NCBI GenBank assembly: GCA_016869145.1
Contig: VGEU01000006.1
Span: 2,210 to 66,209, forward strand
DNA: 64,000 nucleotides
Source of the DNA: Alphaproteobacteria bacterium
GTDB taxonomy: Bacteria; Pseudomonadota; Alphaproteobacteria; MPNO01; VGEU01
Direction: 5' to 3'
Part shown: piece after piece, positions 13,558 through 60,396 of the stretch
Position numbering within the stretch: position 1 is the stretch's first letter
Layout: each line of letters opens with the position of its first letter
Program-made: the position numbers and the translations under genes
Notes under the pieces: generated by a model
The model's input: only the letters and a program-made list of their open reading frames with translations
Told to the model about the DNA's origin: nothing
Databases searched by the model: none

Positions 13558-13569
13558 CGCGGCTACCGG

Positions 13570-41168: not shown

Positions 41169-42841
41169 GGCCTCTCCTCCCGCTCATAGACGACGCGGCC
41201 GCCGACGATCGTCGCCTCGGCGACGATATCGCGGATCGCGTCTTCGGGGCAGGTCAGGGGATCAGCCGACAAGACCGCGAGATCGGCGAGCTTCCCCGCC
41301 TCGATCGTCCCCTTCACCGCCTCCTCGCCCGTGAGATAGGCGCCGTTCGCCGTCGCGAGCCGGAGCGCATCCGCGCGCCCCATGCGCTGCTCGGGCGCGA
41401 TCACCTCGCCCGTGACGAGGCTCTTCCGCGCGATCGTCTGCCACACCGGCCACCACATCGTGGTCGGCACGTTGTCGGTCGCGAGTGCCACCGTGACGCC
41501 GCGGTCGGCGAGGCCGCGGATCGGCACGATCTCGTTGGCGCGCGCCGCGCCGAGCTGGCGGAGGGTCATGTGCCCCGCCTTGTATACATAGTTGTTGGTG
41601 TGGGTGGTGATGATGAGGCCGAGGCGCGCGATGGTGTCGCACTGCGCCTCCGTCAGCGTGTTGATGTGGCCGATTACCCAGCGCCGCCCGGCGAGCGCGA
41701 CCTCCTTGTCGACCGCGGCATAGATGTCGAGAAGATCGGCCGAGAGCGACACGACGCGGAGGTCGTGGCGCGCGGCGGCGATAAGAAAGTCCTTCATCTT
41801 CGCGCGCGGGACTCCGGCGTCGTAGAAGAACCCGGACCAGCCGGTATAGGGCGCGGCGGCGACGCGGAGGCGCTGCTCGTCGATGATGTCGGCTTGAGTG
41901 TGGAGGACCGAGATGCGGAGCCAGTCGTCGCCGAGGCCGCCGCGGCCGAGCCAGGCGAGCCAGCTCGGCAGGAACCCCGCCGGGTCTGGCTCGCCCGACG
42001 CCATCCAGGCGCAGCTATAGGCGAGCGTCGCCCGCACCGTCGCCGCGCCGGCATTGCGCACCGCCTGGTACGCGGCGATCAGCTCCTGCGCCGCGCCGTG
42101 GCCCTCGAACACGCTCGTCGTCCCGGTCGCGTTGTAGATGCGCATTGATTCCGCGAGCGCCTTCACGCGGTGCTCGTGGCGGAAGCCCGGCATCATCGAG
42201 AACAACGCGAGCTCGATCACCGGAACATAGGTGTTCTCGATGAAAATGCCGGTGGGCTCGCCGTTCGCATCCTTCTCGATCGCGACCGTGTCGCACGGGT
42301 TGGCGGTCGCGCGGCCGACGCCCGCGAGCGCGAGCGCCTTCGAATTGGCAACCGACACGATCGGCAGGATGTGGCGCCAATAGCCCCAGATCGGGCGGAT
42401 ATAGACCGGGTTCTGCGGTGACACGCGGTCGAGCTCCCAGCGCGTCGGCATCCGCTTCTCGCGGAGATTGTTGGGGACGTCCCAGTAGAACGGCGGCTCG
42501 CCGATCGGCATCGTGACGAGCCATTCGCCGGGCGCCTTGTCCTTGAGGAGCGCCTCGACCCGCATCAGCACGTCATCGATCGAGGTGCAGCCCGAGAGCG
42601 AGGGATAGACCGACTTGAGGCCCTCGCGGTCCATGTGCGCATGCGCATCGACGAGACCGGGTACCACCGCCCGGCCGCCGAGTGCGATCGTCCGCGTCGC
42701 CGGCCCGGCGAGCGAGCGGAGATCATCGGCGCGGCCGACGGCGAGGATGCGATCGCCCCGGACGGCGAGCGAGTCCGCGATGCGCCCGGCGCCGTCGAGC
42801 GTGATGATCTTGCCGCCGGTGAGGAGAAGATCGGCCGTCAT
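41165..42841 (-). CDS. metal-dependent amidohydrolase (YtcJ-like, amidohydrolase 3 family)
   Basis: Internal ATG (MTADLLLTGGKIITLDG) in ORF 41165..42901. VDAHAHM metal-binding motif. Confidence 0.75.
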   Translation of the reverse strand: MTADLLLTGGKIITLDGAGRIADSLAVRGDRILAVGRADDLRSLAGPATRTIALGGRAVVPGLVDAHAHMDREGLKSVYPSLSGCTSIDDVLMRVEALLKDKAPGEWLVTMPIGEPPFYWDVPNNLREKRMPTRWELDRVSPQNPVYIRPIWGYWRHILPIVSVANSKALALAGVGRATANPCDTVAIEKDANGEPTGIFIENTYVPVIELALFSMMPGFRHEHRVKALAESMRIYNATGTTSVFEGHGAAQELIAAYQAVRNAGAATVRATLAYSCAWMASGEPDPAGFLPSWLAWLGRGGLGDDWLRISVLHTQADIIDEQRLRVAAAPYTGWSGFFYDAGVPRAKMKDFLIAAARHDLRVVSLSADLLDIYAAVDKEVALAGRRWVIGHINTLTEAQCDTIARLGLIITTHTNNYVYKAGHMTLRQLGAARANEIVPIRGLADRGVTVALATDNVPTTMWWPVWQTIARKSLVTGEVIAPEQRMGRADALRLATANGAYLTGEEAVKGTIEAGKLADLAVLSADPLTCPEDAIRDIVAEATIVGGRVVYEREERP

Positions 42842-43269
42842 CGCCGTCTCAGGCGACCGGGTCGACGGCGATGACGTGCACCATGTTGCCCGCTTTCCCA
42901 ATTCCCATCTGCGTGTGTCCCGGCGTCGCCCGGTCGCCGAGCGCCCGAATCCCGAGCAACGAGAGCCCGACTACCGAGAGATAACCCAGCACGCTCACCG
43001 TCACAATCGCCACATCGATCGGCGCGCCGTCGAGAGAGACCCGCGCGATCGTCTTGATGACCACGATCGTGGCCGTCGTGATGGCGAGAAGGACGAGGGT
43101 CCGCGTCTTGCGTCGGGCGTGCCGAACGGCTCGTCCATCTGGCGCGCCGCGGGCCCGTTGGCGAGAGCGCGCCGCGCCGCGCGCCTTGCCTCGGCCGGCG
43201 TCTTGAAACAGACTCCCGGGCCGGGTCCAGCGTGCCGGAAGACACCTCGTCGCAGGGAGACAGGGAACG

Positions 43270-44118
43270 ATGACCGAGCCGAAGTTCAAGCGGGGCGAGC
43301 GGGTGAAGGACAAGATCGTGCTGGTCACCGGCGCCGGCTCGATCGGGCCCGGCTGGGGCAACGGCAAGGCGGCCGCCGTCCTCTATGGCCGCGAGGGGGG
43401 CCGGGTCTTCTGCGTCGATCGCGCCCTCGCCGCGGCCGAGGAAACCATGGCCATCATCGAGCGCGAGGGCGGCATCGCCGCAGCGCACGCCGCCGACGTC
43501 ATGAAGTCAGCCGACGTCAAGGCGATGGTCGATGCCTGCATCGCCCGCTTCGGCCGCGTCGACATCCTGCACAACAATGTCGGCGGGTCCGGGCCGGGCA
43601 ACACGCTCGCCGATACCGAGGAAGACGACTGGGATGCCGTGATGGCCCGCAACGTCAAGTCCGCCTATATGTGCTGCCGTGCCGTGCTGCCGCACATGGA
43701 GAAGCAGGGCGGCGGCGCGATCGTCAACGTCTCCTCCATCGTCGGCATCCGCCACGCGGGCTTCCACACCATGGCCTACTCGGCCTCGAAGGGTGCGCTC
43801 AACCAGTTCACCCAGAACATCGCCGTCCAGCTCGCGCCGAAGAACATCCGCGCCAATTGCGTGGCGCCGGGGCTGATCGACACGCCGTTCATCCATCGCG
43901 AGATCAACGGCGTGCCGGGCTACAAGCGGCGCGGCTTTTCCTCGGTCGATGAGTACCGCCACTCGCGCGATCACGCGATCCCGGCCGGCCGATCGGGCAC
44001 CGGCTGGGACATCGCCTTCGCATCGCTCTTCCTCGCCTCCGACGAGGCGTCCTACGTCACAGGCCAGCTCCTGACCGTCGATGGCGGCCTCACGAGCTCG
44101 GTCGGCAAGATCGACTGA
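43270..44118 (+). CDS. SDR-family oxidoreductase
   Basis: 282 aa. VLVTGAGSIGPG motif. Confidence 0.75.
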   Translation: MTEPKFKRGERVKDKIVLVTGAGSIGPGWGNGKAAAVLYGREGGRVFCVDRALAAAEETMAIIEREGGIAAAHAADVMKSADVKAMVDACIARFGRVDILHNNVGGSGPGNTLADTEEDDWDAVMARNVKSAYMCCRAVLPHMEKQGGGAIVNVSSIVGIRHAGFHTMAYSASKGALNQFTQNIAVQLAPKNIRANCVAPGLIDTPFIHREINGVPGYKRRGFSSVDEYRHSRDHAIPAGRSGTGWDIAFASLFLASDEASYVTGQLLTVDGGLTSSVGKID

Positions 44119-45476
44119 TGGCCCTTCTCGCGATCCATAACGCGCTCCTCGTCCTCGCCGGGGGCGAACGCCACGGCGGTGTCGTCGTCGGCGACGACGG
44201 ACGGATCGAGGCGGTCCTCGACGGCGCGCGCACCGCCTCGGCGGCAACCGTCGTCGATGCGCACGGGCGGCTTCTGTTCCCGGGTTTCGTCGACGCCCAT
44301 GTCCACATGCGCGAGCCCGGCTACACCCAGAAGGAGGACTTCACCTCGGGCACGCTCGCCGCGGCCGCCGGCGGCGTGACGACCGTCCTCTGCATGCCGA
44401 ACACGCGCCCCTCCATCACGGACTTCCCCGGGCTCGAGAACGCACGGCGGGCGGCGGAGGCGCGCGCCGCGGTCGATTTCGGCTTCCAGGCCGGGATCAC
44501 GCGCGGCAACCTCACCGACCTCGCGGGGCTTTGGAGCGCAGGTGTCACCTCGTTCGAGGCGTTCATGGCCGATGTGCCGGACGACGACCGGCTCGACACG
44601 GCCGAGCACCTGCGCGCCGCGCTCGCCGAGGTCGCGCGCTGCGATGCGATCGTCGGCGTCTATTGCGGCGCGCAGTCGGTCATCGCCGCCGAGCGCACGC
44701 GCCTCCAGCGAATCGGGCGGAACGATGTCCACGCCTTCGCCGAGGCACGGCCGGCCCTCAACGAGGTCGCCGGGCTCGCCCTCCTGCTCGAGATCGCCGC
44801 CGCGACCGGCGCGCGGATCGTCGTCCGCCAGGTGTCGAGCGGCCGCGGCGCCGCGCTCATCCGGCGCGCCAAGGCCGATGCGCTCTGCCGCCTGATCGCG
44901 GCCGAGGTGACGCCGCATCACCTCCTCCTCGATCGGAGCGCACTCGACCGGCACGGCACCGCGGCGCAGATGCTGCCGCCGCTCCGCACGCCGGCCGACA
45001 ATGCCGCCCTCCTCGCCGGCCTCGGCGACGGGACGCTCGATTTCGTCGCGAGCGACCACGCACCACATGCGCCGGCCGAGAAGGACCGTGCCGATGCGTG
45101 GTCGGCGGCGAGCGGCACGCCCGGCCTCGACACCCTAGTCCCCGCCGTCCTCCATTGCGCCCGCACCGCGCGGCTCACCTGGCCTCTTGTGGCCGAGATC
45201 CTCGCGCACCGACCGGCGGCGCTGTTCGGCCTCGACAAGCGCAAGGGACGCATCGCGGTCGGGCTCGACGGCGACCTCGTGCTGGTCGATCCCGATGCGA
45301 CACGAACGGTCGAGCGGGCGATGATCCGCTCGCGCGCCGGCCGCTCGGCCTTCGAGGGGACGACGCTGGTCGGCTGGCCCGTCCTCACCGTGCTCCGCGG
45401 CCACGTCGTCGCGGAGAGCGGCCGGCCGGTCCTCGGCCATCTGCGCGGGCGGCTCGTCATCCGCAACGCCGCCTGA
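44118..45476 (+). CDS. type I dihydroorotase-like cyclic amidohydrolase (DHOase/hydantoinase/allantoinase family)
   Basis: 452 aa. DAHVHMREPG...GGVTTVLCMPNT motifs. TGATG coupling with the upstream SDR. Confidence 0.75.
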   Translation: MALLAIHNALLVLAGGERHGGVVVGDDGRIEAVLDGARTASAATVVDAHGRLLFPGFVDAHVHMREPGYTQKEDFTSGTLAAAAGGVTTVLCMPNTRPSITDFPGLENARRAAEARAAVDFGFQAGITRGNLTDLAGLWSAGVTSFEAFMADVPDDDRLDTAEHLRAALAEVARCDAIVGVYCGAQSVIAAERTRLQRIGRNDVHAFAEARPALNEVAGLALLLEIAAATGARIVVRQVSSGRGAALIRRAKADALCRLIAAEVTPHHLLLDRSALDRHGTAAQMLPPLRTPADNAALLAGLGDGTLDFVASDHAPHAPAEKDRADAWSAASGTPGLDTLVPAVLHCARTARLTWPLVAEILAHRPAALFGLDKRKGRIAVGLDGDLVLVDPDATRTVERAMIRSRAGRSAFEGTTLVGWPVLTVLRGHVVAESGRPVLGHLRGRLVIRNAA

Positions 45477-45490
45477 ACAGCGAGGGCGCC

Positions 45491-46261
45491 ATGGCGCAGC
45501 AACCCGGCAAGATGACCTATATCCCGCCCGCACACGGCGCGGCGAGCGTGCTCGGCGAGAACGGCCGGATCGGGGTGATCGTGCCGGCCAACAACTCGGT
45601 GCTGGAGCCCGAGCTGTGGGCGCGGCTGCCGCCGGGCGTCGCGCTCTACGCGACCCGCATCCTCGCCCGCGGCAACCTCACGCGCGAGGCGGTGGTCGCG
45701 ATGGAGAAGTCCGTCGACCGCGCGGTCGACGAGCTGGTCGCGACGATGGTCGATGTCATCGCCTATGCCGACATGGTGACGACCTTCGTCATGGAGGACG
45801 GCTGGAACGAGAAGAAGACCGAGGCGATCGCGCGCCACGCCGGCGTGCCGTGCGTGTCGGCCTGGACGGCGCTCCGCGACGCGCTCGCCGCGCTCGAGGT
45901 CAAGAGGTTCGCGCTCCTCACGCCCTATCCGAGGCCGATCCACGCGCTGTGCCGCCCGTTCTTCGAGCACAAGGGCTTCACGCTGAGCGGCGAGGCGACC
46001 CTCGACATCCTCGCCATGACCGACGTGCCCAAAGTATCGGTCGAACGGGTGCGCGAGGCGGTCGAGGCGATCGACCGCCGCGAGGCGCAGGCGATCGTCG
46101 CGCTGGCGACCGATCTCCCGACATTCGCCGCGATCGCGATGCTGGAACGCCGCTTCGCGATCCCCGTCCTCACGTCGAACCAGACGCTTCTGTGGCGGGC
46201 GCTCCGCGCCGTCGGCTACAAGGGCGGCGTCGTTGGGCTCGGCGGCCTCTTCTCCGTGTAA
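45491..46261 (+). CDS. Asp/Glu/hydantoin racemase-family protein (maleate isomerase / arylmalonate decarboxylase / hydantoin racemase-like)
   Basis: Internal ATG (MAQQPGKMTYIPP) in ORF 44531..46261. 256 aa. Confidence 0.6.
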   Translation: MAQQPGKMTYIPPAHGAASVLGENGRIGVIVPANNSVLEPELWARLPPGVALYATRILARGNLTREAVVAMEKSVDRAVDELVATMVDVIAYADMVTTFVMEDGWNEKKTEAIARHAGVPCVSAWTALRDALAALEVKRFALLTPYPRPIHALCRPFFEHKGFTLSGEATLDILAMTDVPKVSVERVREAVEAIDRREAQAIVALATDLPTFAAIAMLERRFAIPVLTSNQTLLWRALRAVGYKGGVVGLGGLFSV

Positions 46262-46272
46262 GGACCACGCCC

Positions 46273-47424
46273 ATGGACCCGCGCCCCGCCGCCCTCCGGG
46301 CCCTGTCGATGCCGCGCTCCGCCATCCGCGAGATCATGGTGCTCGCGGCTAGCCGGCCCGACGTCGTCCATCTCGAGGTCGGCGAGCCCGATTTCGGCAC
46401 GCCCGACCATATCGTCGCGCGCGCGGTCGCAGCGCTCCGCGAGGGCTGGACGCGCTATACGCCGAACCCCGGCATCCTCCCCTTGCGCGAGCGCATCGCG
46501 GCGCGGTTCGCCGCAAGGCTCGGACGCGCGATCGCCGTCGATCGGGTGGTGGCGACGACGGGCGCCGTCGGCGCGCTCTACACCGCGGTCAATCTCGTCG
46601 CCGATGTCGGCGATGAGGTGCTGATCCCCGATCCGGGCTGGCCCAACTATCACAGCATGGTGCATCTCGCCGGCGCGGTGCCGGTGCACTATGCGCAGCC
46701 CGCCGCGATCGGCTACCTCCCCGACCCCGACCGGATCGCCCATCAGATCACGCCCCGCACCAAGGCGATCCTCTACAACACGCCGGGCAATCCGACCGGC
46801 GTCGTCTTTCCGCGCGAGATCGTCGCCGCGCTCGCCGGCCTCGCCGAGAAGCACGGGCTCTATCTCATCGCCGACGAGGTCTACGAGGACATCGTGTTCG
46901 AGGGCGCGCATGTCTCGGCGGCCTCGTTCGGGCTCGACGATCGGGTGTTCGTCGTCTCCGGCGCCTCGAAGAGCTATGCGATGACGGGCTGGCGGGTCGG
47001 CTTTCTTCTCTGCCCGCCCGCCCTCGGCCCCCTCGCCGCGATCCTGCAGGAGCCGGTCACCTCGCACACGGCCGCGGTGTCGCAGGTCGCCGCCGAAGCC
47101 GCGCTCGCCGGACCGCAGGACTGCGTCGCCGCCGCGCGCGAGACCTTCCGCCGCCGGCGCGACATCGTGCTCGACATTCTCGGCAATACCGGGCTTCTCG
47201 CCGCCCCGCCGTCGGGCGCCTTCTATTCGCTGGTCGGCATCGGCGATCGCCCGGCCGATTCGATGGCGTTCGCCAAGGCGCTCCTGATCGAGAAGGGCGT
47301 CGCGACCGTGCCCGGCTCGACCTTCGGCCCGTCGGCGGCGCGGACGGTCAGGATCGCGTTCACGACCGATGACCGCTCGCTGCGGACCGGGCTCGAACGG
47401 CTCCGCGATCAGGTCCTCGGCTAG
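46273..47424 (+). CDS. pyridoxal-phosphate-dependent aminotransferase (class I/II)
   Basis: Internal ATG (MDPRPAALRAL) in ORF 45616..47424. SGASKSYAMTGWRVG PLP-lysine motif. Confidence 0.75.
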   Translation: MDPRPAALRALSMPRSAIREIMVLAASRPDVVHLEVGEPDFGTPDHIVARAVAALREGWTRYTPNPGILPLRERIAARFAARLGRAIAVDRVVATTGAVGALYTAVNLVADVGDEVLIPDPGWPNYHSMVHLAGAVPVHYAQPAAIGYLPDPDRIAHQITPRTKAILYNTPGNPTGVVFPREIVAALAGLAEKHGLYLIADEVYEDIVFEGAHVSAASFGLDDRVFVVSGASKSYAMTGWRVGFLLCPPALGPLAAILQEPVTSHTAAVSQVAAEAALAGPQDCVAAARETFRRRRDIVLDILGNTGLLAAPPSGAFYSLVGIGDRPADSMAFAKALLIEKGVATVPGSTFGPSAARTVRIAFTTDDRSLRTGLERLRDQVLG

Positions 47425-48620
47425 GGGAGAATGCGCGCGACCGCGTCAGCGAGGACGCGGCAGCCGAGCACGATGTCGTCGTCCGCGGTGTTCTCGGCGA
47501 TATCGTGGCTGCGCCCGCCGATCGAGGGAATGAACAGCATCGCGGCCGGCATGTGACGCGCGAGCACGATCGCATCGTGACCGGCGCCGGAGGGCATTAC
47601 GAGAGGCTCGGCGCCGTGTGCGCCCGCGGCCGCCGCGAGATGCGCCCGGAGACCGGCATCCATCGCCGTCGGCGCGATCGCGGCCGTCCGCGTCGCCGCG
47701 ACCGTGACCGGCCAGCCGCCCATCTCGGCGACGAGCGTGTGGACGGCGCCCTCCATCGCATTGAGCACGGCGGGCTCGGTGTCGCGGCACTCGACGAGGA
47801 GCTCGGCGGATGCCGGCACGACATTCGCCGCGCCGGGTGCGAACGTCGCCGCGCCGAGATTCCACACCGTATCGCTCCGCGCGATCGCCCGGAAGGCACG
47901 GAGCAGCGCATGACCGAAACCGATCAGCGCCGCGCCGGCGTCCTTCCGCATCGCCATCGGGGTCGTCCCGGCGTGGTCGGCCTGGCCGGCGAAGCTGATC
48001 TTGTAGCGGCGGATGCCGACGATGCCGGTGACGACACCGATACGCCGGCCCTCGGCCTCGAGCCGCGGCCCCTGCTCGATATGCGCCTCGAGATAAGCGC
48101 GGTAACGGCCCGGCTCGTTGCGTGCCGGCCGCGCGCCCGCGAGCCCGCTCGCCGCGATCGCCTCGCCGAGGACGCGTCCGTCGGGTGAGCGCGCACCGGC
48201 CGCGCTCGCCGGATCGATCTCGCCGCAGAAGGCGAGGCTGCCGAGGAGGGGATGGAAGGCCCCCTCCTCCTCCTGGAACGAGATCACATCGACCGCCTTG
48301 CCCGCCGCGGTCGCCGCCCGCGCGATCGCGAGCCCGTACATCACACCGAGCGCACCGTCGAGCCAGCCGCCTTTGGGCACCGAATCCGTGTGCGAGCCGA
48401 CAAGGACGGACGGCCCACCGGCGCGCGAGCGCCCGAACACGTTGCCGACATTGTCGATCCAGCTGTCATGCCCGATCGCCGCGAGCTCGCCCGCGACCCA
48501 GCGTCGCGCCGCGAGATCGTCGGCGCTGAACGCCGGGCGGTTCACGCCGGAGCCCACCTTGCCGAACGTCGCGAGGCGGCGGAGATCGGCGAGAAGGCGC
48601 TCTCCGTCGATCGCGAGCAT
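47421..48620 (-). CDS. M20-family Zn-dependent amidohydrolase (allantoate amidohydrolase / N-carbamoyl-L-amino-acid hydrolase type), copy 1
   Basis: Internal ATG (MLAIDGERLLADL) in ORF 47421..48770. 399 aa. Confidence 0.75.
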   Translation of the reverse strand: MLAIDGERLLADLRRLATFGKVGSGVNRPAFSADDLAARRWVAGELAAIGHDSWIDNVGNVFGRSRAGGPSVLVGSHTDSVPKGGWLDGALGVMYGLAIARAATAAGKAVDVISFQEEEGAFHPLLGSLAFCGEIDPASAAGARSPDGRVLGEAIAASGLAGARPARNEPGRYRAYLEAHIEQGPRLEAEGRRIGVVTGIVGIRRYKISFAGQADHAGTTPMAMRKDAGAALIGFGHALLRAFRAIARSDTVWNLGAATFAPGAANVVPASAELLVECRDTEPAVLNAMEGAVHTLVAEMGGWPVTVAATRTAAIAPTAMDAGLRAHLAAAAGAHGAEPLVMPSGAGHDAIVLARHMPAAMLFIPSIGGRSHDIAENTADDDIVLGCRVLADAVARILP

Positions 48621-48637
48621 ACGGCGGCGTTCCGCGC

Positions 48638-49336
48638 TCAGCCGGGATACTCGGCGATGCCGCCGTGCTCGCGCGACCACACGATCGGATCGGCGAGAAA
48701 CTTCTTCACCTCGTCGATGGTCGCCTGGTCGAAATAGCTCCCGGCCTCGGCCGCCTCGACGACGTCCCACCAGGTCGCGAGATAGTGGAGCGTGATGCCG
48801 ATGTCCTGCATGATCTTCGCGGTGTGCGGGAATATGCCGTAGTGGAACAGCACGAAGGCATGCTCGACGGAAGCGCCGGCGTTGCGGAGCGCCTTGCAGA
48901 AATTGACCTTGCTGCGGCCGTCGGTGGTCAGGTCCTCGACCAGGATGCCGCGCCAGTTCTCCTTGAGCGCCCCTTCGATCTGCGCGAGGCGGCCGAACCC
49001 CTTGGGTTGCTTGCGCACATAGAGCATCGGGAGCTGCATGCGGTCGGCGATCCAGGCGGCGAACGGGATGCCGGCCGTCTCGCCGCCCGCGACCGCGTCG
49101 AGCTGCTCGAAGCCGACCTCGCGCAGGATGGTCGTCGTCGAGAAATCGATCAGCGCCTGGCGCGCGCGCGGATAGGAGATCAGCTTGCGGCAGTCGATGT
49201 AGACCGGGCTCGCCCAGCCCGAGGTGAAGATGAACGGCCGCTCGGCGTTGAAATAGGCGGCCTTCACTTCCAACAGGATTCTCGAGGCGACGTTGGCTAT
49301 TTGCTTCTTATCGAGCAGTTCGGCGCCTAAGTTCAT
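48638..49336 (-). CDS. pyrE: orotate phosphoribosyltransferase
   Basis: Internal ATG ([11 protein letters not shown]) in ORF 48638..49408. PRTase motif [10 protein letters not shown]. Confidence 0.7.
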
Positions 49337-49443
49337 CGAGATTTCCCGAGCGGTGCCGCCGGTGGCGCGTTTCCGCGCGGGCGGGGTCGGGGGATTGATT
49401 ACCGCCATTCGGAAAGGGCGGCAAACGGATTCTTCCGGCCGGT

Positions 49444-50487
49444 TCAGCCCGCTACGAGACGCCAGCGCAGGGTCTCGCCGGCGCGGAACGGGATCACCGC
49501 CTCACCCTCCTCGATCGCGACCGCGGCGGGAATGCGCGTGCCCGAGTTGACGAGCGAGATCCGCTGCTCGTTCGGCGGCATGCGATAGAACGCGGGCCCA
49601 TTGAGCGAGGCGAAGGCCTCGAGCGCGTCGAGCGCATTGTCCTCGTCGAAGACCTCGGCATAGAGCTCGAGCGCGCCCGGCGCATTGAAGATGCCGGCGC
49701 AGCCGCATGCGTTCTCCTTGTCGCGCAGGCGATGCGGCGCCGAGTCGGTCCCGAGGAAGAAGCGTGGATTGCCGGAAGTCGCCGCGCGCCGGAGCGCGAG
49801 CCGGTGCCGCTCGCGCTTGGCGATCGGCAGGCAGTACATGTGCGGGCGGATACCGCCCTGGAAGATGGCGTTGCGGTTGATCATCAAATGGTGCGCGGTG
49901 ATCGTCGCGCCCACCTGATGCGGAGTGTTTATCACGAACTCGACACCTTCTGCGGTCGTCACATGCTCGAACACGACGCGGAGCGTCGGCATGCGGTCGA
50001 GAAGCGGCGCGAGGATGCGGTCGAGGAACACCGCCTCGCGGTCGAACACGTCGACGTCCGGATCGACCACCTCGCCATGAACGAGGAGCGGCATGCCGAT
50101 CTCGGCCATCGTCGTGAGCACGCGGTCGATCTTGCGAATGTCGGTGACGCCGGCATGGGAGTTCGTCGTCGCGCCGGCCGGGTAGAGCTTCATCGCGATC
50201 CAGGCGCCCGACTTGAAACCACGCGCGACCTCCTCGGCTTCGATCGTATCGGTGAGATAGCCGGTCATCAGCGGCGTGAAATCGGCGCCGCGCGGCATCG
50301 CGGCGAGAATGCGATCGCGATAGGCCCGCGCCGCCCCCGCCGTCGTCACCGGTGGCACCAGATTCGGCATGATGATCGCGCGGGCGAAGCGCTCGACCGT
50401 ATAGGGAAGCACGTTCGACAGCATCGTTCCGTCGCGGAGATGGAGATGCCAGTCGTCCGGCCGGCGGATCGTCACCACCGCGGTCAT
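49444..50487 (-). CDS. pyrC: dihydroorotase, type II (homodimeric, E. coli PyrC-like)
   Basis: 347 aa. [15 protein letters not shown]-terminus nearly identical in pattern to E. coli PyrC. Confidence 0.8.
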
Positions 50488-50490
50488 CGG

Positions 50491-51801
50491 TCACGCCGCC
50501 GGATCGAGCAGCGCCGCCTGGAGGAGGTCGACGCCGCGCATGAAATCCTCGATCGCCATCGCCTCGCGCGGATTGTGCGAGCCGTGCGCGTTCCGAATGA
50601 AGATCATCGCCGACGGCACGCCGGCGCCGAGGAAGATCGCGGCGTCGTGGCCGGGCCCGGACGGCATGCGGCAGGTCGGGATCTCAAGCCGCTTGGCGAG
50701 CGCGTCGAGGTGCTCGATCCAGCGCTCGCCGATCCTCTCCGGCACCGCGAATACCCGCCGGTCGAACTCGAAGCGCACGCCGCGGGTCTTGGCGACCACG
50801 TCGCACTCGGTCTGCACCAGGCGATGGAAGGTCTCGAGCGTGTCGAGGCTGAGGCTCCGGAACTCGAGGCTGAACTCGACCTCGCCCGGGATACGCGACA
50901 TCGCGTGCCGGCTCGGATCGGTCGTGAAGATGCCGCTCGTGATGACGAGGTCGATGCCGCGCTCCATGAGAACGCGCCAGTGCTCGTCGAGCCGCATCAG
51001 GACGTCGGCTACCGCAAGCACGGAATCGTGGCGGAGCCAGCGCGGGATCGCGCCCGAGTGTCCGGCCTCGCCGTGGCAGACGATCTTCAGATGGCGGACA
51101 TAGCCACGGATGCCGGTGACGATGCCGACCGGCAGCGCGCGATCGACGAGGACGGGGCCCTGCTCGATGTGGACCTCGACGAACGCCGCGAAGTCCTCCG
51201 CCCGCGCCAAGGGCTCGCCCGAGGCGATCGCGACGATGTCGGCGCCGGCGGCTTCCATATAGGTCGCGAGCGGCTTGCCCGTATCGCGATGGCGGCGCTC
51301 GAGGTCGAGGGGATCGAGCCGGCCGAACAGCGCGCTCGAGCCGAGATAGGCCTTGCCGAACCAGGCGCTCTCCTCGCCGCGGATGCCGTAGAGGCGGATC
51401 GTCCGCCGCGGCGTGATCCCGGCCGCCTTGATCCGCGACAGCGCGACGAAGCCGGCGACGACACCGGCCGCGCCGTCGAAATTGCCGCCCTGCGGCACGG
51501 AATCGAGATGCGATCCGGTCGCGACGACAGGCCGTCCGGGCTCGCTGCCGGGCAGCTCGATCACGAGGTTGGCGGCGCGATCGCGCGCGACGGCGAAGCC
51601 GGCCTTGCGCGCCTCGGCGGCGATGAACTCGTGCGCCGCGCCCTCGCCGGCATCGTAGGAGGCGCGCGTGATGCCGACGCCGTCGAAGGACAGTCGACGG
51701 AGGCTGTCGAACAAAGCGCGCGCGAGCGCCGCGCCGTCGCCGGCACGCGCGAGCGAGCCCGCGGAATCCTGTGCGGCCGTCGTCGGACGATCGTCCGGCA
51801 T
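50491..51801 (-). CDS. M20-family Zn-dependent amidohydrolase (N-carbamoyl-amino-acid / allantoate amidohydrolase type), copy 2
   Basis: C-terminal 436 aa of read-through ORF 50491..52962, from ATG at 51801 (MPDDRPTT...). The upstream 380 codons are R/G-rich noise. Confidence 0.7.
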   Translation of the reverse strand: MPDDRPTTAAQDSAGSLARAGDGAALARALFDSLRRLSFDGVGITRASYDAGEGAAHEFIAAEARKAGFAVARDRAANLVIELPGSEPGRPVVATGSHLDSVPQGGNFDGAAGVVAGFVALSRIKAAGITPRRTIRLYGIRGEESAWFGKAYLGSSALFGRLDPLDLERRHRDTGKPLATYMEAAGADIVAIASGEPLARAEDFAAFVEVHIEQGPVLVDRALPVGIVTGIRGYVRHLKIVCHGEAGHSGAIPRWLRHDSVLAVADVLMRLDEHWRVLMERGIDLVITSGIFTTDPSRHAMSRIPGEVEFSLEFRSLSLDTLETFHRLVQTECDVVAKTRGVRFEFDRRVFAVPERIGERWIEHLDALAKRLEIPTCRMPSGPGHDAAIFLGAGVPSAMIFIRNAHGSHNPREAMAIEDFMRGVDLLQAALLDPAA

Positions 51802-51809
51802 GATGCGCC

Positions 51810-52745
51810 TCACGCCTCGCGGGCGCGACGGGCCGGCGCTGCGCTCGGCAGCGCGCGACCGATCAGATCGGTGACGCGGGCGATCTTGCGCTCGGTGCAC
51901 CAGGCCGCGAGCCCGTCGACGATCCGCACCATCGCCTTCGGATAGAGGAACGTCGCCGTGCCGACCTGGACCGCGCTCGCGCCGGCGGCGAGGTACTCGA
52001 CGACATCGGTCGCGTTCATGATCCCGCCCGAGCCGATGATCGGGATGCGGACGGCCTGTGCGCACTGCCAGACCATGCGGAGGATGACCGGCTTCACGGC
52101 CGGTCCGGAGAGGCCGCCGGTGCCGGTGCCGAGCTTCGGCGCGAGCGTCTCGAGATCGATCGCCATGGCGAGGATGGTGTTGGCGACCACGACCGCGTCG
52201 GCGCCGGCGGCCTCGGCGGCGCGCGCGCTCGCGGTCGCCGATCCGGTATTGGGCGTGAGCTTCGCCCACAGCGGCCAGTCGGTGCGGACCCGCATGCGGC
52301 TCACGACGTCGTAGGTCGCATCGGCCTCCATCGCGACGGCGTGTCCGCCCTCCTCGATATTGGGGCAGGAGATGTTGATCTCGATCGCAGCGACGCCTGG
52401 AACCGAGACGCGCTCGGCCATCATCGCGAAGTCCTCGGGCGAATCCGCCGAGACGCTGACGACGAGTGGCGCCGCATAGCGGGCATAGAACGGCACCGTC
52501 TTGGCGAGGAAGTGATCGATGCCCTTGCTCGGAAGCCCGATCGAATTGAGCATGCCGGACGGCGTCTCGGCGACGCGCGGTGTCGGGTTGCCGTCGCGGA
52601 AGCCGGGCGTGACGCTTTTCGTGACGTAGGCGCCGAGCCGGTTGAGGTCGACGACCCGCGCGAGCTCCTCCGAGAACGTGCCGGAACCCGGCATGATCGG
52701 GTTGCGGAGCGCGAGCGATCCGATGCGAACGCCGAGATCTACCAT
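51810..52745 (-). CDS. pyrD: dihydroorotate dehydrogenase class 1B catalytic subunit (PyrD-B like, FMN)
   Basis: Internal ATG (MVDLGVRIGSLALRNPIMPGSGTF) in ORF 51810..53213. Active-site Cys in NISCPN. Confidence 0.75.
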   Translation of the reverse strand: MVDLGVRIGSLALRNPIMPGSGTFSEELARVVDLNRLGAYVTKSVTPGFRDGNPTPRVAETPSGMLNSIGLPSKGIDHFLAKTVPFYARYAAPLVVSVSADSPEDFAMMAERVSVPGVAAIEINISCPNIEEGGHAVAMEADATYDVVSRMRVRTDWPLWAKLTPNTGSATASARAAEAAGADAVVVANTILAMAIDLETLAPKLGTGTGGLSGPAVKPVILRMVWQCAQAVRIPIIGSGGIMNATDVVEYLAAGASAVQVGTATFLYPKAMVRIVDGLAAWCTERKIARVTDLIGRALPSAAPARRAREA

Positions 52746-53584
52746 GACAACGCCTCGTGTAGTCCGAAGACAGGCCCGTCGCGGCAGACACGGAGATTGG
52801 CGACGGTGCCGTTGCGCTCGATCTGGCGCACGCAGCAGAAGCACATGCCGAGCCCGCACGCCATCTGCTGCTCGATCGCGACCTGGCCGCCGATCCCGTG
52901 CGCGCGCCCGAGCGTCTGGAGGAGCTTGAGGAGCCGGTTGGAACCGCAGGTGAAGAAGGCATCGGCGCGACCGGCCCGGATCAAGTCGAGCAGAAGCCGC
53001 TCCACCTGCGGCACGGCGCTCGTTCCCTCCTCGTCGGTGACGGTGAGGACCTCGGCACCGGCATCGGCGAACACCGACTGCGACATCAGATCGAGCTTGC
53101 TGCGCGCGCTCAAGACCGCGGTGATGGCGACGCCCGAGGCCTGTGCCAACTGGGCGAGCGGCGCGAGGGTGGCGAGGCCGACGCCGCGGGCGAGGACCAC
53201 GATGCGCCGCCACGCCGGATCGAGCGAGAAGCCGAGACCGAGCGGACCGAGCATGTCGAGCGTGTCGCCCGGCGCGAGAAGAGCGAGCGCGCGGGTGCCG
53301 GCGCCGGTCACATGGTACAGAAACTCGACCGTCCCCCCATTAGGATGCATCTGGTAGACGCTCATCGGGCGGCGCAGGAAGACCGCCTCGTCGGGTAGCG
53401 GCGGACAGAGGAGGTTGAAGAACTGGCCGGGCCGGATCTTGCGCGCCGCCTCGGGCGCCGACACGACGAGATGCTTGTAGCGGGCGTTGACGGCGGCGTT
53501 GACGAGGACCGTGCCGAGATATTCATCGCCCGGAACCGGCAGCGGCGTCGGGGCCTCGACGGCGGCGAGCGTATCGGCCCTCAT
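52739..53584 (-). CDS. pyrK: dihydroorotate dehydrogenase electron-transfer subunit (PyrK-like, FAD + 2Fe-2S)
   Basis: 281 aa. RRPMSV FAD motif and C-terminal CGLGMCFCC 2Fe-2S cysteine cluster. Overlaps the pyrD start. Confidence 0.75.
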   Translation of the reverse strand: MRADTLAAVEAPTPLPVPGDEYLGTVLVNAAVNARYKHLVVSAPEAARKIRPGQFFNLLCPPLPDEAVFLRRPMSVYQMHPNGGTVEFLYHVTGAGTRALALLAPGDTLDMLGPLGLGFSLDPAWRRIVVLARGVGLATLAPLAQLAQASGVAITAVLSARSKLDLMSQSVFADAGAEVLTVTDEEGTSAVPQVERLLLDLIRAGRADAFFTCGSNRLLKLLQTLGRAHGIGGQVAIEQQMACGLGMCFCCVRQIERNGTVANLRVCRDGPVFGLHEALSW

Positions 53585-53718
53585 CGGTCACTGCGCGGTG
53601 CGCGCGGGCCGGCGCATCCGCGCGCCCGCCGGTTGCGCCCCGTCCGTTCGGAATTCATCCGTGTCCCCATGCCTAGCCCGAGGCCGCCTTCCCGTTCACC
53701 GCCGTCTTGTTGCGGTCC

Positions 53719-53775
53719 TTGTTTTAAGTCCAATCGTTAAATGATTGAAAAATTTTAATACTAAACTCATCCTCA
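53719..53775. promoter_or_regulatory. AT-rich (about 25-30 percent GC) element in the divergent promoter region between the pyrK operon and a small hypothetical gene
   Basis: ttgttttaagtccaatcgttaaatgattgaaaaattttaatactaaactcat within a 70 percent GC genome. Contains TTGAAA / TAATAC-like hexamers. Confidence 0.4.
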
Positions 53776-53820
53776 GGCCCGTCAATAGGGTGTGCCGGCG
53801 CCACGATCGCTGTGTGGCGG

Positions 53821-53886
53821 CCGGCGGCGGCGCCGCCACGGCCCGCCGGAATGGTAGCCGATCGCCCCGCGGGCGGGCCCGCGGGG
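53821..53886. promoter_or_regulatory. GC-rich palindromes (ccggcgg...ccgccgg; ccccgcgggc-gg-gcccgcgggg) upstream of the small hypothetical gene
   Basis: Perfect 10-bp inverted repeat with 2-nt spacer at ~53865-53886 and a ggcggcgccgcc palindrome at ~53827-53838. Confidence 0.35.
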
Positions 53887-53958
53887 CGGGGCCATGACCG
53901 CTTGATTTATCCGCGCGATCCGGCAGCATCGCGCGATACCGGGACGGAGACGTGTTCG

Positions 53959-54270
53959 ATGACCTTGAACGAACTGTATGAAGGGCTGAAGCAGCGCGAC
54001 CGTGGCATGGCCGCGTTCGACCGCTTCATGCAGGATTGCCGGAGCGGGATCGAGAGCGACCGCGCCCACGCGGCCGCCTATCATCTCCTCCTCAGCATCA
54101 CCGCCCGGTTCTGCGACCGATACGACCGCGAGCCTCTTCCTCTCACGACCGCCCAGGAAGCCAAGGACGCCCTCCTCCGCCTCACCGACCAGGCCCGCGC
54201 CGCCGAGACCCGGAGCGCGGACGAGCAGATCCGAGTCCTCAACGCGATCGCGACGACCGAACTCGGCTGA
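53959..54270 (+). CDS. hypothetical small alpha-helical protein (103 aa)
   Basis: Internal ATG (MTLNELYEGLKQ) in ORF 53812..54270. No recognisable family. Confidence 0.45.
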   Translation: MTLNELYEGLKQRDRGMAAFDRFMQDCRSGIESDRAHAAAYHLLLSITARFCDRYDREPLPLTTAQEAKDALLRLTDQARAAETRSADEQIRVLNAIATTELG

Positions 54271-54275
54271 GGTCG

Positions 54276-55316
54276 TCAGGCGGCCTTGGGGCTCACCCGC
54301 CCTTCATAGAGATCACGCCCGAGCTTGAGCGCGCGGATCTTGCGGTCCGCGACATAGCGGCGGTGGTTCCACAGCCCGCAATCGGGGTGGATGTAGCGGA
54401 TCCGCTCGGGACCGAGGATCCCGGCCATCCGCTCGATGTCGCGCGCGATCTCGTCGGGGGATTCGGCGACCGTCGTCTTCACGTCGCACACGCCGACGCC
54501 GAACCCGATATCGGGACGGAGGTCGCGGAACACGACCAGGGTCTCCGGCGCGTGCATCTTGCACTCCATGATGATGTGGTCGACGTGGAGCGCGTTGAGA
54601 TAGTCCATCAGCCGGGCCCAGGTGCCGCGCTGCGAGCGCTGCCCGCCATAGTTGCCGAAACAGAGGTGGACCGCGGCGGTCGTCTTGACCGCGTCGAGCA
54701 CGCGGTTGATCGCGCTCGCCGCCCACTCCCACTCGTCCGGGTGGCCGGGAAGGTTCGCCTCGTCGAGCTGGATCACCGGCGCGTCGAGCCGGGCGACCTG
54801 CGCGGCGAGGAGATCGGCGATCGCATGGCAGAGCTGAGGCAGGTCCTTGTAGTGGTAGTCGACCAGGCTCTTGGCGATCATGTGCGGTCCGGTGACCGTG
54901 AATTTCAGCGGCACCGTCGAGAGCTCCATCGCCCGCTGGCATGGCCGCTGCAGGTTGAGCGTCCCGTTGCCGACTGGTCCGATCACCGCGCCGGCCGGGT
55001 TGCGGCGCCAGCGCAGCATGTCGGAATCGGCCTCGAACTTGACGAAATCGTCGAACAGGAGGTCGGATCGGATGCCCGACATCGGCCGCGTGAAATACTC
55101 GATCATGCCGTTGGCGTCGGGATGGCTGAGATCGTAGCGATAGACCTCGCCGTCGCACACGAGGTCGATGCCGCATTGCTCCTGCGTGTGGAGGATCACC
55201 CGCGTCGCATCGACGATCATCTGTTCCGAGGGCTGATGGCCGAACCATTCCGGGACCGGGTAGGACCCGACGACGGTCGTCTTGATGCACGGCGCGGCCA
55301 TGGCGACATCCTCCAT
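54276..55316 (-). CDS. cobalamin-independent methionine synthase (MetE) C-terminal-domain-like / UroD-fold methyltransferase-like protein
   Basis: 346 aa, IKTTVVGSYPVP N-terminal motif. Start may be the internal Met at ~55301. Confidence 0.6.
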   Translation of the reverse strand: MEDVAMAAPCIKTTVVGSYPVPEWFGHQPSEQMIVDATRVILHTQEQCGIDLVCDGEVYRYDLSHPDANGMIEYFTRPMSGIRSDLLFDDFVKFEADSDMLRWRRNPAGAVIGPVGNGTLNLQRPCQRAMELSTVPLKFTVTGPHMIAKSLVDYHYKDLPQLCHAIADLLAAQVARLDAPVIQLDEANLPGHPDEWEWAASAINRVLDAVKTTAAVHLCFGNYGGQRSQRGTWARLMDYLNALHVDHIIMECKMHAPETLVVFRDLRPDIGFGVGVCDVKTTVAESPDEIARDIERMAGILGPERIRYIHPDCGLWNHRRYVADRKIRALKLGRDLYEGRVSPKAA

Positions 55317-55342
55317 TGTCTCCCCCGGGCGGTCGACACCGC

Positions 55343-56146
55343 CTAGGGGCTCGTCTCGCGAAACGGAACTTCGCGCGGCCGCGGTGTCGCTTTAAAGGCC
55401 TGGCCGCGGCGCGCGCGTATTCGGACCACGGCGAAGACCATGCGGAGCCCGTCGCGCCACACCCGCACCTGGTCGAGCGGATCGATGCGCCAGATCACCG
55501 GCACCGCGGCGACCCGGTAGTCGCGCAGCCAGGCGAGGCGCAGGATCTCGACATCGAAGGCATAGCCGTCCTCGCGCGCCCGCCCGAAGAGATCGGCCGC
55601 GGCGGCGGCGGTGAACAGCTTGAACCCGCATTGCGTGTCCTCGAGCCCCGGCACCGCGAGCGCCCGGACGAAACCGCGGAACATGCGGCTCAGGCTGCAG
55701 CGCATCCAGTCGAGCCGTGTCCAGAGCGCCGCGTCCTGGCGGACGCCAACCGCGATGTCGGCGCCGGCCGCAATCTCCTGACGGAGCCGCGGCCACTGCC
55801 GGATGCCGACACCCCCGTCGGCATCGGCGAGAAGCCGGAGTGCGCCGCGCGAGGCGCGCATGCCGACCCGGGTCGCCGCACCCTTGCCGCGGTTGCGGTC
55901 GAGGCGGAGAAGCCGCACGTTGGGATGGAACCGCGCCCGCGCCAGCACGACCTCAGCCGTCTCGTCGCGGCTCCCGTCGTCGACCACCACGACCTCGAAG
56001 CTGAGGCCCTCCTCGCCGAGTGCCAACAGCGTGTCGTCGAGGAACGCCGGCAGCCGCGTCGCCTCGTCATGGGCCGGGACGACGACGCTGAGCCCGAGAT
56101 CGCCGGTCTCCTCGCTCGAAGAGCTTGTTTCTGTCGACGCAACCAT
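55343..56146 (-). CDS. family 2 glycosyltransferase (dolichol/polyprenol-phosphate mannosyl/glucosyltransferase-like)
   Basis: Internal ATG (MVASTETSSSSEETGDLGLSVVVPAHDE) in ORF 55343..56320. DDGSRD and LLADADG motifs. Confidence 0.7.
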   Translation of the reverse strand: MVASTETSSSSEETGDLGLSVVVPAHDEATRLPAFLDDTLLALGEEGLSFEVVVVDDGSRDETAEVVLARARFHPNVRLLRLDRNRGKGAATRVGMRASRGALRLLADADGGVGIRQWPRLRQEIAAGADIAVGVRQDAALWTRLDWMRCSLSRMFRGFVRALAVPGLEDTQCGFKLFTAAAAADLFGRAREDGYAFDVEILRLAWLRDYRVAAVPVIWRIDPLDQVRVWRDGLRMVFAVVRIRARRGQAFKATPRPREVPFRETSP

Positions 56147-56303
56147 GATGTTGTTCGTCGCGGGCCGTCGATTGTTCGCGTCGCGATGTACAGCGCTGTG
56201 CGGATGCAGAGCGGTCTGGAGTGTGACAGAATTCGGGTCGATTCGGTACGGATTGCTGATGACGGCGTCGCGAGCCGGCAATAGCGGGGCAAGGAGAGCG
56301 AGC

Positions 56304-57551
56304 ATGGCGACGGAGATCAAGGAACGGAGCGAGACCCGCGAACACTATGATGTCGGCGGCATTCGTCTCGAGCGGCCCTTCCGCATCCGGCGGATGGGCC
56401 ATTTCGGCTTCAACTGCCGGAATGTCGAGGGCAACCTCCATTTCTATGGCGAGCTCCTCGGCCTCTACCGCTCCGACCCGATCGACTTCGGCGCCCGCGT
56501 CGCCGACAAGTCGCTCCTCGCGGGCAAGGGCTCGACCATCGGCTGGTTCATGCGCCACGGCACCGATCACCACAGCTTCGTGGTGTTTCCAGGCCGCGTG
56601 CTCGACGTGCTCGCCGGCAGGCCCGACCATCAATCCGAGGTCACGATCAACCAGATCACCTGGCAGGTCGGCAGCCTCCGCGAGGTGACCGAGGCGACGC
56701 GCTGGCTCGGCCAGCGACATGTCAAGATTCGCCGCGTCGGGCGAGACACGCCGGGCTCCAACTGGCACTGCTACCCGATCGATCCTGACGAGCATGTCAA
56801 CGAGCTCTATTACGGGATCGAGCAGGTCGGCTGGAACGGGCACAGCAAGCCGCGCGCCATGTACGCACGCGGCTTCCAGGAAACGCCGAGCCTGCCGCAG
56901 ATCTCGGAGTTCCGCGAGGTCGAGGACGCGATGGCGCAGGGCATCGACATCGGATCGGGCTATCGCTCCCGCCCCGTGGGCGAGGCGCGCTATGACGTCG
57001 GCGGCATCCTCTTGCCGCGTCCGTTCAAGATCGTCCGGGTCGGGCCCGTGCATCTCTTCGTCAAGGACGTCGAGACCTCGGTCCGCTATTACCGCGACGT
57101 GCTCGGCCTTCAGGTCAGCGAGGAGATCACCTGGCAGGGCCACACTTGCGTGTTCCTCCGCTGCAACACCGAGCACCATTCGGTCGGGCTCTACCCGATC
57201 GCGCTCCGCGCCGTGCTCGGGCTCAGCGCCCACACGACGTGTCTTTCTTTCGGGATGCAGCTCGCCGAGTACCGCCAGCTGCGCGATGCGGTCTCCTGGC
57301 TCGGCGAGCGCGGTGTCACCATCAAGCACCTGCCGCCCGAATTGTTCCCGGGGATCGAGCACTCCGCCTTCGCGATCGACGTCGACGGCCATGCGATCCA
57401 GCTCTACCACGCGATGGAGCAGATCGGCTGGGACGGCCGGCCGCGTCCGGCGGCGCTCCGGCGCAAGATCGACAACGGGAACTGGCCAGAGTTTCTCGAC
57501 CCGCTCTCCGACAGCTACATGGGCGAGGCCTATCTCGGCCCGTGGGGCTGA
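56304..57551 (+). CDS. tandem two-module VOC-family protein (glyoxalase / extradiol dioxygenase-like)
   Basis: Internal ATG preceded by AAGGAGAG in ORF 55803..57551. Two homologous halves (YDVGGIRLERPFRIRRMGHF / YDVGGILLPRPFKIVRVGPVHLF). Confidence 0.7.
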   Translation: MATEIKERSETREHYDVGGIRLERPFRIRRMGHFGFNCRNVEGNLHFYGELLGLYRSDPIDFGARVADKSLLAGKGSTIGWFMRHGTDHHSFVVFPGRVLDVLAGRPDHQSEVTINQITWQVGSLREVTEATRWLGQRHVKIRRVGRDTPGSNWHCYPIDPDEHVNELYYGIEQVGWNGHSKPRAMYARGFQETPSLPQISEFREVEDAMAQGIDIGSGYRSRPVGEARYDVGGILLPRPFKIVRVGPVHLFVKDVETSVRYYRDVLGLQVSEEITWQGHTCVFLRCNTEHHSVGLYPIALRAVLGLSAHTTCLSFGMQLAEYRQLRDAVSWLGERGVTIKHLPPELFPGIEHSAFAIDVDGHAIQLYHAMEQIGWDGRPRPAALRRKIDNGNWPEFLDPLSDSYMGEAYLGPWG

Positions 57552-57570
57552 GCCGCGCGCGGGCGCAACG

Positions 57571-57603: not shown

Positions 57604-57623
57604 CGTTGTGGGACCGACCGCGA

Positions 57624-60384: not shown

Positions 60385-60396
60385 GCCCGTCCCCGC

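Follow-up and report, generated by a model that had tools for sequence, protein, structure and literature searches.

A stretch of 64,000 nucleotides from an alphaproteobacterial contig (VGEU01000006.1), called the window here, carries on its minus strand a run of pyrimidine genes in which a hydrolase of the M20 family, M20-B, lies between pyrD and pyrC. The genes pyrK-pyrD-M20B-pyrC-pyrE probably encode a reductive route of orotate catabolism to aspartate, with M20-B as the putative ureidosuccinase. A second M20 hydrolase, M20-A, follows pyrE. The region as a whole is best explained as two adjacent modules for the breakdown of cyclic ureides, the pyr operon (module 1) and a convergent hydantoinase-type set (module 2).

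The gene family identities, the layout of the operon and the conserved linkage of its genes were observed directly. Read 5′ to 3′ on the minus strand, the order is a pyrK-like gene, a class 1B pyrD, M20-B, a type II pyrC, pyrE and M20-A (Table 1). pyrK and pyrD overlap by 7 nt, pyrD is separated from M20-B by 8 nt, M20-B from pyrC by 3 nt, and pyrE from M20-A, on the same strand, by 17 nt. The gap between pyrC and pyrE is 107 nt with the start given by the gene caller (49336) and 35 nt if an ATG at 49408 is used. A first-pass annotation of this DNA had proposed that two paralogous M20 genes bracket pyrE-pyrC at gaps of 4-20 nt. The bracketing proved exact in position, with both M20 genes on the minus strand, and the 8 and 17 nt gaps agree with the range given; the M20-B to pyrC and pyrC-pyrE distances fall outside it. 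The proposed run of M20-B, pyrC, pyrE and M20-A stands as part of a longer operon, which starts further upstream with the pyrK-like gene and the class 1B pyrD.

A sigma-70-like site upstream of pyrK is the sole promoter-like match within 47000-54400, in a window with a GC content of ~0.63-0.75. Terminator-like matches inside the M20-B coding sequence were put down to chance (4 seen vs 2.2 expected), and an Rfam scan of the whole window returned no element. The gene arrangement was seen again in a freshwater metagenome contig from JGI that matches the window (L001; related loci are referred to by L numbers) and in the nearest relative (L082), and its M20-B part in dozens of genomes. Thus, the arrangement is not a product of chance.

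The pyr genes were assigned by scores against curated models. PyrD has the class 1 catalytic-Cys motif NISCPN, and it does not reach the PreA model NF006183 (140 vs a cutoff of 335). By model score PyrC is a type II dihydroorotase (DHOase) and not a dihydropyrimidinase; an identical protein is encoded on L001, in the same gene order. The pyrK-like protein ends in a Cys motif, MACGLGMCFCC...VCRDGPVF, with four Cys. Neither pyrB nor pyrF is found in the operon.

M20-B scored above the cutoff of the hydantoinase/carbamoylase family model TIGR01879 (273.4 vs 204) and also above that of PF01546, its top model being NF009527 (401 vs 461). The nearest solved structure was 3N5F (E 1.8e-53); against the 3N5F, 1Z2L, 4PXB and 1R3N structures only 135-185 bits were obtained. 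Both M20 proteins fall in the hydantoinase/carbamoylase/allantoate-amidohydrolase branch, as the earlier description of them as carbamoylase-type enzymes would have it, and not in a peptidase subfamily. They are paralogous in that both belong to the TIGR01879 family (284 and 273 vs 204). The relationship is distant, with 32% identity (E 2e-35) and different top models (NF009529 for M20-A, NF009527 for M20-B), which indicates old paralogues rather than a recent duplication. Neither protein reached the cutoff of the AllC equivalog TIGR03176 (224.1 and 201.3 vs 597.75), of ErtE, the N-carbamyl-L-glutamate amidohydrolase (NF058540; 302.6 and 263.6 vs 520), or of any other equivalog.

The alignment to characterised carbamoylases suggested in the first-pass annotation gave no call on the substrate. 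At the sequence level, the di-metal and catalytic motifs GSH(L/T)DSV, (F/L)DG, EE, HIEQG and GHDA of both M20 proteins align with those of 3N5F, 1Z2L and 4PXB. The substrate carboxylate is held by a pair which we take to be Asn and Arg (N279/R292 in 3N5F numbering). M20-B keeps the substrate Arg and the partner-subunit His, and Ser-Arg replaces Asn-Val. The canonical substrate Asn is Ser, Ala or Thr in the entire M20-B subfamily, sister-clade proteins included, and the subfamily has a PRW-type motif after the dimer-domain His. An assignment of the substrate from pocket residues was rejected, as the change of Asn to Ser and the following basic residue occur throughout the subfamily, including members without pyr linkage. 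Because these pocket changes are shared, the substrate of M20-B was taken from gene context, in the light of which ureidosuccinase (N-carbamoyl-L-aspartate amidohydrolase, EC 3.5.1.7) is the best reading. To our knowledge, this activity has no reference sequence.

To define that context, relatives of M20-B were collected in a scan of one genome per species, which gave 80 loci; the window proteins were mapped onto the loci and a neighbor-joining tree was built. The M20-B clade comprises 57 loci, with roughly 43-60% identity to M20-B. In 56 of these, pyr genes lie within 10 kb (pyrK/pyrD in 27, pyrE or a pyrE-like gene in 50, pyrC in 14), compared with 0/16 loci of a sister clade from which the tree parts it. 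Gene order differs among the loci: M20B-pyrC-pyrE-pyrK-pyrD is found in L023, pyrK/pyrD are divergent in Falsiroseomonas, and pyrE lies upstream of M20-B in Burkholderiales. This variation favours selection on clustering over inherited adjacency. The clade extends over Alphaproteobacteria (Rhodospirillales, Acetobacteraceae, Bradyrhizobium, Methylobacterium, SAR116) and Betaproteobacteria (Variovorax, Acidovorax, Bordetella, Comamonas, Cupriavidus) and, via plasmids, reaches Klebsiella. The sister clade adjoins a dihydropyrimidinase/D-hydantoinase gene (TIGR02033, 441 vs 393), which suggests that the whole subfamily acts downstream of cyclic amidohydrolases.

Partner genes were found by clustering the neighbouring open reading frames (ORFs) of the relatives' loci, followed by model scans. 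Recurrent partners are an MFS transporter, whose nearest family is that of the aromatic-acid/H+ symporters, a regulator of XRE or LysR type, and TctC-type binding proteins. An aspartate ammonia-lyase gene (TIGR00839, 688.6 vs 681.2) is present in the cluster region of three loci (L015, L036, L041), and in L015 it stands between M20-B and pyrE. The earlier proposal that an M20 enzyme would complete the conversion of orotate to aspartate thus has strong comparative backing for M20-B from its conserved synteny with pyrK/pyrD, pyrC and pyrE and further backing from the transporters, regulators and aspartate ammonia-lyase of its relatives.

The cluster is also carried on a 2.5-Mb replicon and on plasmids. 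On this replicon, from Variovorax paradoxus VAI-C, the genes are annotated as porin, MFS, pyrK, pyrD, amidase, pyrC, helix-turn-helix (HTH) regulator, pyrE and a small hypothetical gene; the M20-B orthologue of this strain is QRF62224.1. A plasmid of Roseomonas marmotae has LysR, pyrK, pyrD, hydrolase, pyrE and a small hypothetical gene. M20-B homologues were found in 53 Klebsiella plasmid records, one of which was examined. The module on this conjugative plasmid (NZ_CP069904.1, 229076-244257; L087; M20-B orthologue WP_204752700.1) is complete and consists of MFS, pyrK-like, pyrD, hydrolase, pyrC, HTH regulator and a small hypothetical gene; it is flanked by insertion sequences, lies beside lacYZ and is without pyrE. 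No match to it was obtained by megablast against complete E. coli genomes. Since the chromosome of enterobacteria already provides pyrC, pyrE and a class 2 pyrD, the set on the plasmid is an accessory one rather than a biosynthetic one.

In the proposed pathway, PyrK/PyrD, a class 1B flavoenzyme, would reduce orotate to L-dihydroorotate with NADH. PyrC would open the ring by hydration to give N-carbamoyl-L-aspartate, which M20-B would hydrolyse to L-aspartate, CO2 and NH3. In this way pyrimidine synthesis would run backwards over its steps 3 and 4, drawn by the irreversible M20-B reaction. In genomes with the aspartase, aspartate could be converted further to fumarate and NH3. PyrE may send part of the orotate to orotidine monophosphate (OMP), sustaining the nucleotide supply while M20-B drains carbamoyl-aspartate. 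This function of PyrE as a safeguard of OMP synthesis from imported orotate is the least supported step of the scheme.

Which way the flux runs, what M20-B acts on and what PyrE does are inferred. Among the arguments for a catabolic direction, the pyrK/pyrD genes carry the most weight. The orotate/dihydroorotate couple lies at about -0.25 V, so NADH can reduce orotate and ubiquinol cannot; the quinone-linked class 2 dihydroorotate dehydrogenase (DHODH) of proteobacteria cannot run in reverse. This accounts for an extra class 1B enzyme in proteobacteria.

Several observations weigh against this reading. In 26 loci of the clade, including SAR116 and several betaproteobacteria, pyrE or a pyrE-like gene is the only companion of M20-B, and pyrK/pyrD are absent within 10 kb. 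M20-B is therefore tied at its core to pyrE, a link that the catabolic model explains only by way of the proposed safeguard role. The pyrK-like protein scores below the PyrK equivalog cutoff (124 vs 270) and is thus a divergent subunit. The MFS transporter, XRE/LysR regulator, TctC protein and aspartase of the relatives were searched for in the window, and none is there. The pyrC and pyrE of the window look canonical and could be the only copies in the organism. The pocket residues of M20-B do not single out aspartate. Clade-specific residues beside the active-site motifs (G142, W255, E313) are only suggestive as hints of specificity and would need a structure for their interpretation.

The prominence of pyrE also bears on another scheme, in which exogenous N-carbamoyl-L-aspartate or dihydroorotate enters the route. 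M20-B would still be a ureidosuccinase that releases nitrogen, and PyrC, PyrK/PyrD and PyrE would be biosynthetic, salvaging the compound to OMP. pyrE or a pyrE-like gene is the commonest partner of M20-B, and some of the loci without pyrK/pyrD carry LysR regulators and TctC-type carboxylate-binding proteins. However, a dedicated NAD-linked class 1B DHODH is then left unexplained where a class 2 enzyme exists. The pair occurs in 27 loci, as well as in the examined Klebsiella module, which lacks pyrE. We consider entry at these intermediates unlikely.

The substrate itself could differ. M20-B may act on N-carbamoyl-beta-alanine, another N-carbamoyl-L-amino acid or a substituted orotate-derived ureide, and the pyr-like genes on an orotate analogue. 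Dihydropyrimidinase/hydantoinase genes beside sister-clade members, JGI labels of many relatives as beta-ureidopropionase or N-carbamoyl-L-amino-acid hydrolase, and a pocket that gives no proof of aspartate specificity would all be in keeping with this. PyrD, PyrC and PyrE nevertheless all score above curated cutoffs of the orotate pathway, PyrD reaches less than half of the PreA cutoff, and some clusters contain an aspartate ammonia-lyase. A different substrate therefore seems quite unlikely, and orotate catabolism through M20-B is retained as the preferred interpretation.

Table 1. Features of the pyr operon, the convergent module 2 and the flanking small gene (positions in the window; scores are given against model cutoffs)
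Feature	Position	Strand	Basis or remark
Small unannotated protein, 103 aa, divergent from pyrK	53959-54270	+	Conserved accessory gene of the module
Sigma-70-like promoter site TTGACG-16-TAGTAT	53758-53785	-	Upstream of pyrK, AT-rich stretch; consensus match only
pyrK-like electron-transfer subunit (FAD/NAD-binding, 2Fe-2S)	52739-53584	-	PF10418 48.1 bits vs 23.9
Class 1B DHODH catalytic subunit pyrD	51810-52745	-	NF005574 344.9 vs 269; PF01180 237 bits; start per L001 gene call
M20-B, M20 carbamoylase-family hydrolase, candidate ureidosuccinase, 436 aa	50491-51801	-	TIGR01879 and gene context
Type II (homodimeric) dihydroorotase pyrC	49444-50487	-	TIGR00856 445.6 vs 292.95
Orotate phosphoribosyltransferase pyrE, canonical alphaproteobacterial type	48638-49336	-	NF001729 375 vs 245; start per L001 gene call
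M20-A, canonical L-carbamoylase-type M20 hydrolase, 399 aa	47421-48620	-	TIGR01879 284 vs 204; NF009529 429 vs 508; PF01546 above cutoff
Class I/II aminotransferase, aspartate-aminotransferase-like, convergent with M20-A	46273-47424	+	PF00155 201 bits; NF041091 307 vs 550
Amdase/maleate-isomerase/EutA-like protein (Asp/Glu-racemase superfamily)	45491-46261	+	PF17645 72.5 vs 25.9; TIGR02990 81 vs 318
Cyclic amidohydrolase cycAH (DHOase/allantoinase/hydantoinase-like)	44118-45476	+	TIGR00857 301 vs 279; NF002668 336 vs 452; allantoinase 309 vs 358
SDR oxidoreductase directly upstream of cycAH	43270-44118	+	PF13561 188 bits; module membership uncertain

M20-A differs from M20-B in both its residues and its neighbours. 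It has all three of the Asn, Arg and partner His (ANVVP...ECRD; ADHAG), and its nearest solved structure, 6C0D (373 bits), has no assigned function. The stop codons of M20-A and of the convergent aminotransferase gene overlap in a CTAG palindrome (47421-47424), which leaves no space for a terminator between them. A metagenome scan with cycAH as query gave 49 loci. In 13 of these the cycAH orthologue has an M20-A relative (45-52% identity) as its immediate upstream neighbour. This agrees with the earlier suggestion that the second M20 copy serves the DHOase-like enzyme encoded across the convergent junction. In loci that are long enough, an Amdase-family gene and/or an aminotransferase gene (60-67% identity) comes after cycAH, and the Amdase-like gene is kept between the two. 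Where module 2 is fuller, it also has genes for a TRZ/ATZ-type amidohydrolase, a TRAP transporter (DctP/DctM) and an OCD/mu-crystallin protein. A relative of the SDR oxidoreductase was found near the module in one related locus only, L097. Module 2 was located in the window at 43270-48620 and in L093, L097, L099 and L100-L102.

Because its relatives are consistently paired with a cycAH orthologue, M20-A was assigned to module 2, and it is best explained as the carbamoylase of this hydantoinase-type module, acting on some ureide. In the nearest relative (L082, 72% identity), M20-A lies ~4 kb off, outside the pyr operon, and is still convergent with the same aminotransferase gene. M20-A has probably moved behind pyrE in the lineage of the window, where it would ride on the pyr transcript.

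As M20-A is probably co-transcribed behind pyrE, this position raises the question whether it supplies the ureidosuccinase activity of the pyr operon, either by itself or in redundancy with M20-B. Its distance from pyrE is short, M20-A relatives lie a few kb from M20-B in L082 and L028, and the partner aminotransferase resembles aspartate aminotransferase. Against this, nearly all other pyr/M20-B clusters are without M20-A, its relatives pair with the cycAH orthologue, and its more distant homologues are in unrelated contexts. The probability of such a role is slim, and M20-B is kept as the candidate for the ureidosuccinase step.

Module-2-type genes were also seen near M20-B in other genomes. 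M20-A-like, OCD/mu-crystallin and TRZ/ATZ genes recur beside M20-B/pyrE in L028 (6233-13500) and in L034 and L035 (~12400-16900), and module-2-type genes in L049, L050 and L068 (~8800-9960). These recurring neighbours in unrelated genomes hint at a functional link between modules 1 and 2.

The operon could alternatively be a second set for de novo pyrimidine synthesis, for example a low-oxygen, NAD-linked one, with the M20 genes as passengers. The canonical pyrC and pyrE, and a window without transporter or regulator, would suit such a set. It would, however, be without pyrB and pyrF, and M20-B is kept with pyr genes over three proteobacterial classes in varied orders. Transporters, regulators and aspartase accompany M20-B, and plasmid copies are accessory. 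A biosynthetic operon with passenger M20 genes is thus very improbable. Generic annotation places the M20 genes in purine catabolism, as amidohydrolases of allantoate or ureidoglycolate, which is scarcely credible: the subfamily model NF006771 ('allantoate amidohydrolase') gives the two proteins 345 and 367 bits and the AllC and UAH structures are among the PDB matches, but all allantoate-specific models, AllC included, stay below cutoff, no other purine-catabolic genes (e.g. urate oxidase, ureidoglycolate enzymes) occur among the scanned neighbours, and M20-B is without the canonical substrate Asn.

Two further components accompany the pyr/M20-B set. The pyrE genes linked to the cluster fall into two classes by NF001729 (cutoff 245). 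Those of the window and of SAR116 are canonical, at 375-395 bits; the other class is a divergent paralogue with scores of 208-269 bits. Canonical examples are the window gene (48638-49336) and L054 (11378-12073); divergent ones are L016 (12324-13010), L018 (11233-11925) and L043 (9297-9968). The divergent class prompts the question whether it is a true orotate phosphoribosyltransferase.

The second component is the protein of 103 aa encoded divergently from pyrK. BLASTP of the window ORF against the ~108-aa cluster protein gave no match; homology was then shown by profile methods. Aligned by hhalign with the ~108-aa proteins that end the clusters of Variovorax, Castellaniella and others, it gave a probability of 95.5% and an E value of 1.6e-8, and it is the only ORF of the window matched by the hidden Markov model of that family (E 5e-8). 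The protein holds the same place in L082 (4354-4665), and further copies of ~100-109 aa occur in L086 (10999-11325), L087 (10433-10759) and L088 (9005-9322). A full HMMER scan gave 53 cluster representatives of the protein family, where a word-indexed search gave only 2. The AF2 model computed from the alignment is a five-helix bundle with a pLDDT (predicted local distance difference test) of 96.5; the single-sequence model was unusable (pLDDT 58). No Pfam family scored above threshold, and no PDB fold match was significant (best CheA P1, E 0.57).

The genes around the two modules (37807-43000 and 54276-63341) resemble a catabolic island. They include a UbiD-family decarboxylase, an FAA hydrolase, an Amidohydro_3 protein, a MetE-like protein, a GT2 glycosyltransferase, a glyoxalase-fold protein, two Amidohydro_2 proteins and an AMP-dependent ligase. 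Several of these genes are rearranged relative to the pyr operon in L082.

That orotate is broken down by way of dihydroorotate and ureidosuccinate has been textbook knowledge from the 1950s onwards, when the same three-step route was reportedly shown in orotate-degrading bacteria by Lieberman and Kornberg. For reductive orotate fermentation or degradation, Clostridium oroticum (Zymobacterium oroticum) and aerobic orotate degraders use an NADH-dependent dihydroorotate dehydrogenase, a dihydroorotase and ureidosuccinase. The pathway proposed here would have these three reactions in common with theirs, in unchanged order, and would likewise end in aspartate and depend on an NAD-linked flavoprotein of class 1B type that has an iron-sulfur subunit. 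Their pathway was defined biochemically, whereas the evidence here is genomic and comes from proteobacteria, with pyrE, a transporter, regulators and the small protein in addition. Reductive pyrimidine catabolism (PydA/PreAT, the dihydropyrimidinase PydB and the beta-ureidopropionase PydC), the route by which uracil is degraded, is an exact analogue, with homologous enzyme families at each of the three steps: the reductase is DHODH-like, a cyclic amidohydrolase comes next, and the last enzyme is in many bacteria an M20 carbamoylase. In contrast, the scores here are those of a class 1B DHODH and a type II DHOase and not of PreA or dihydropyrimidinase; the substrate would have an extra carboxylate and the product would be aspartate instead of beta-alanine.

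With the Geobacillus stearothermophilus L-N-carbamoylase (3N5F), AllC (1Z2L), UAH (4PXB) and yeast beta-alanine synthase (1R3N), M20-A and M20-B share the two-domain M20 fold family, and the metal ligands, catalytic Glu-Glu, dimer-domain His and substrate Arg align in both. The M20-B subfamily is set apart from these enzymes by its replaced Asn and its PRW-type motif. Module 2 resembles the modules for hydantoin utilisation (hydantoinase, L-carbamoylase, racemase) and ergothioneine utilisation (ErtD/ErtE) in its architecture of a cyclic amidohydrolase, M20-A and a racemase-superfamily protein. It differs from these in scores well under the cutoffs of the ergothioneine models (ErtD 218 vs 600, ErtE 303 vs 520), in that its racemase-like gene is of the Amdase/EutA family and not a classical hydantoin racemase, in the added aminotransferase and, in its fuller versions, in the TRAP transporter and OCD-like genes.

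The chemistry and the enzyme families are already known. What appears to be new is that an M20 clade is assigned to the step of ureidosuccinase, along with the conserved and mobile orotate-catabolic operon and its two unexplained partners. A full-text search of the published literature, which omitted most subscription journals, found no gene assigned to ureidosuccinase and no account of the cluster. The cluster is not described in a study of reaction modules in pyrimidine and purine metabolism (PMC4016543).

The fuller generalisation has, in our estimate, about even chances. It would make the M20-B clade the ureidosuccinase gene and the cluster a widespread, horizontally mobile orotate-catabolic operon of Alpha-, Beta- and Gammaproteobacteria, Klebsiella conjugative plasmids included, with the linked pyrE paralogue and the five-helix protein as new required components. 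If the assignment is true, the cluster offers a directly testable candidate gene for the last enzyme of orotate breakdown. It would also correct annotations that read 'pyrimidine biosynthesis' for pyrD and pyrC, or 'Zn-dependent hydrolase / allantoate amidohydrolase' for the M20 gene. Pyrimidine biosynthesis would then have a catabolic mirror image that is widespread in soil, freshwater and marine proteobacteria and is carried on plasmids of clinical Klebsiella. The analysis also flags two conserved partners, the divergent pyrE paralogue and the five-helix protein, together with a second module for ureide utilisation, to which M20-A belongs.

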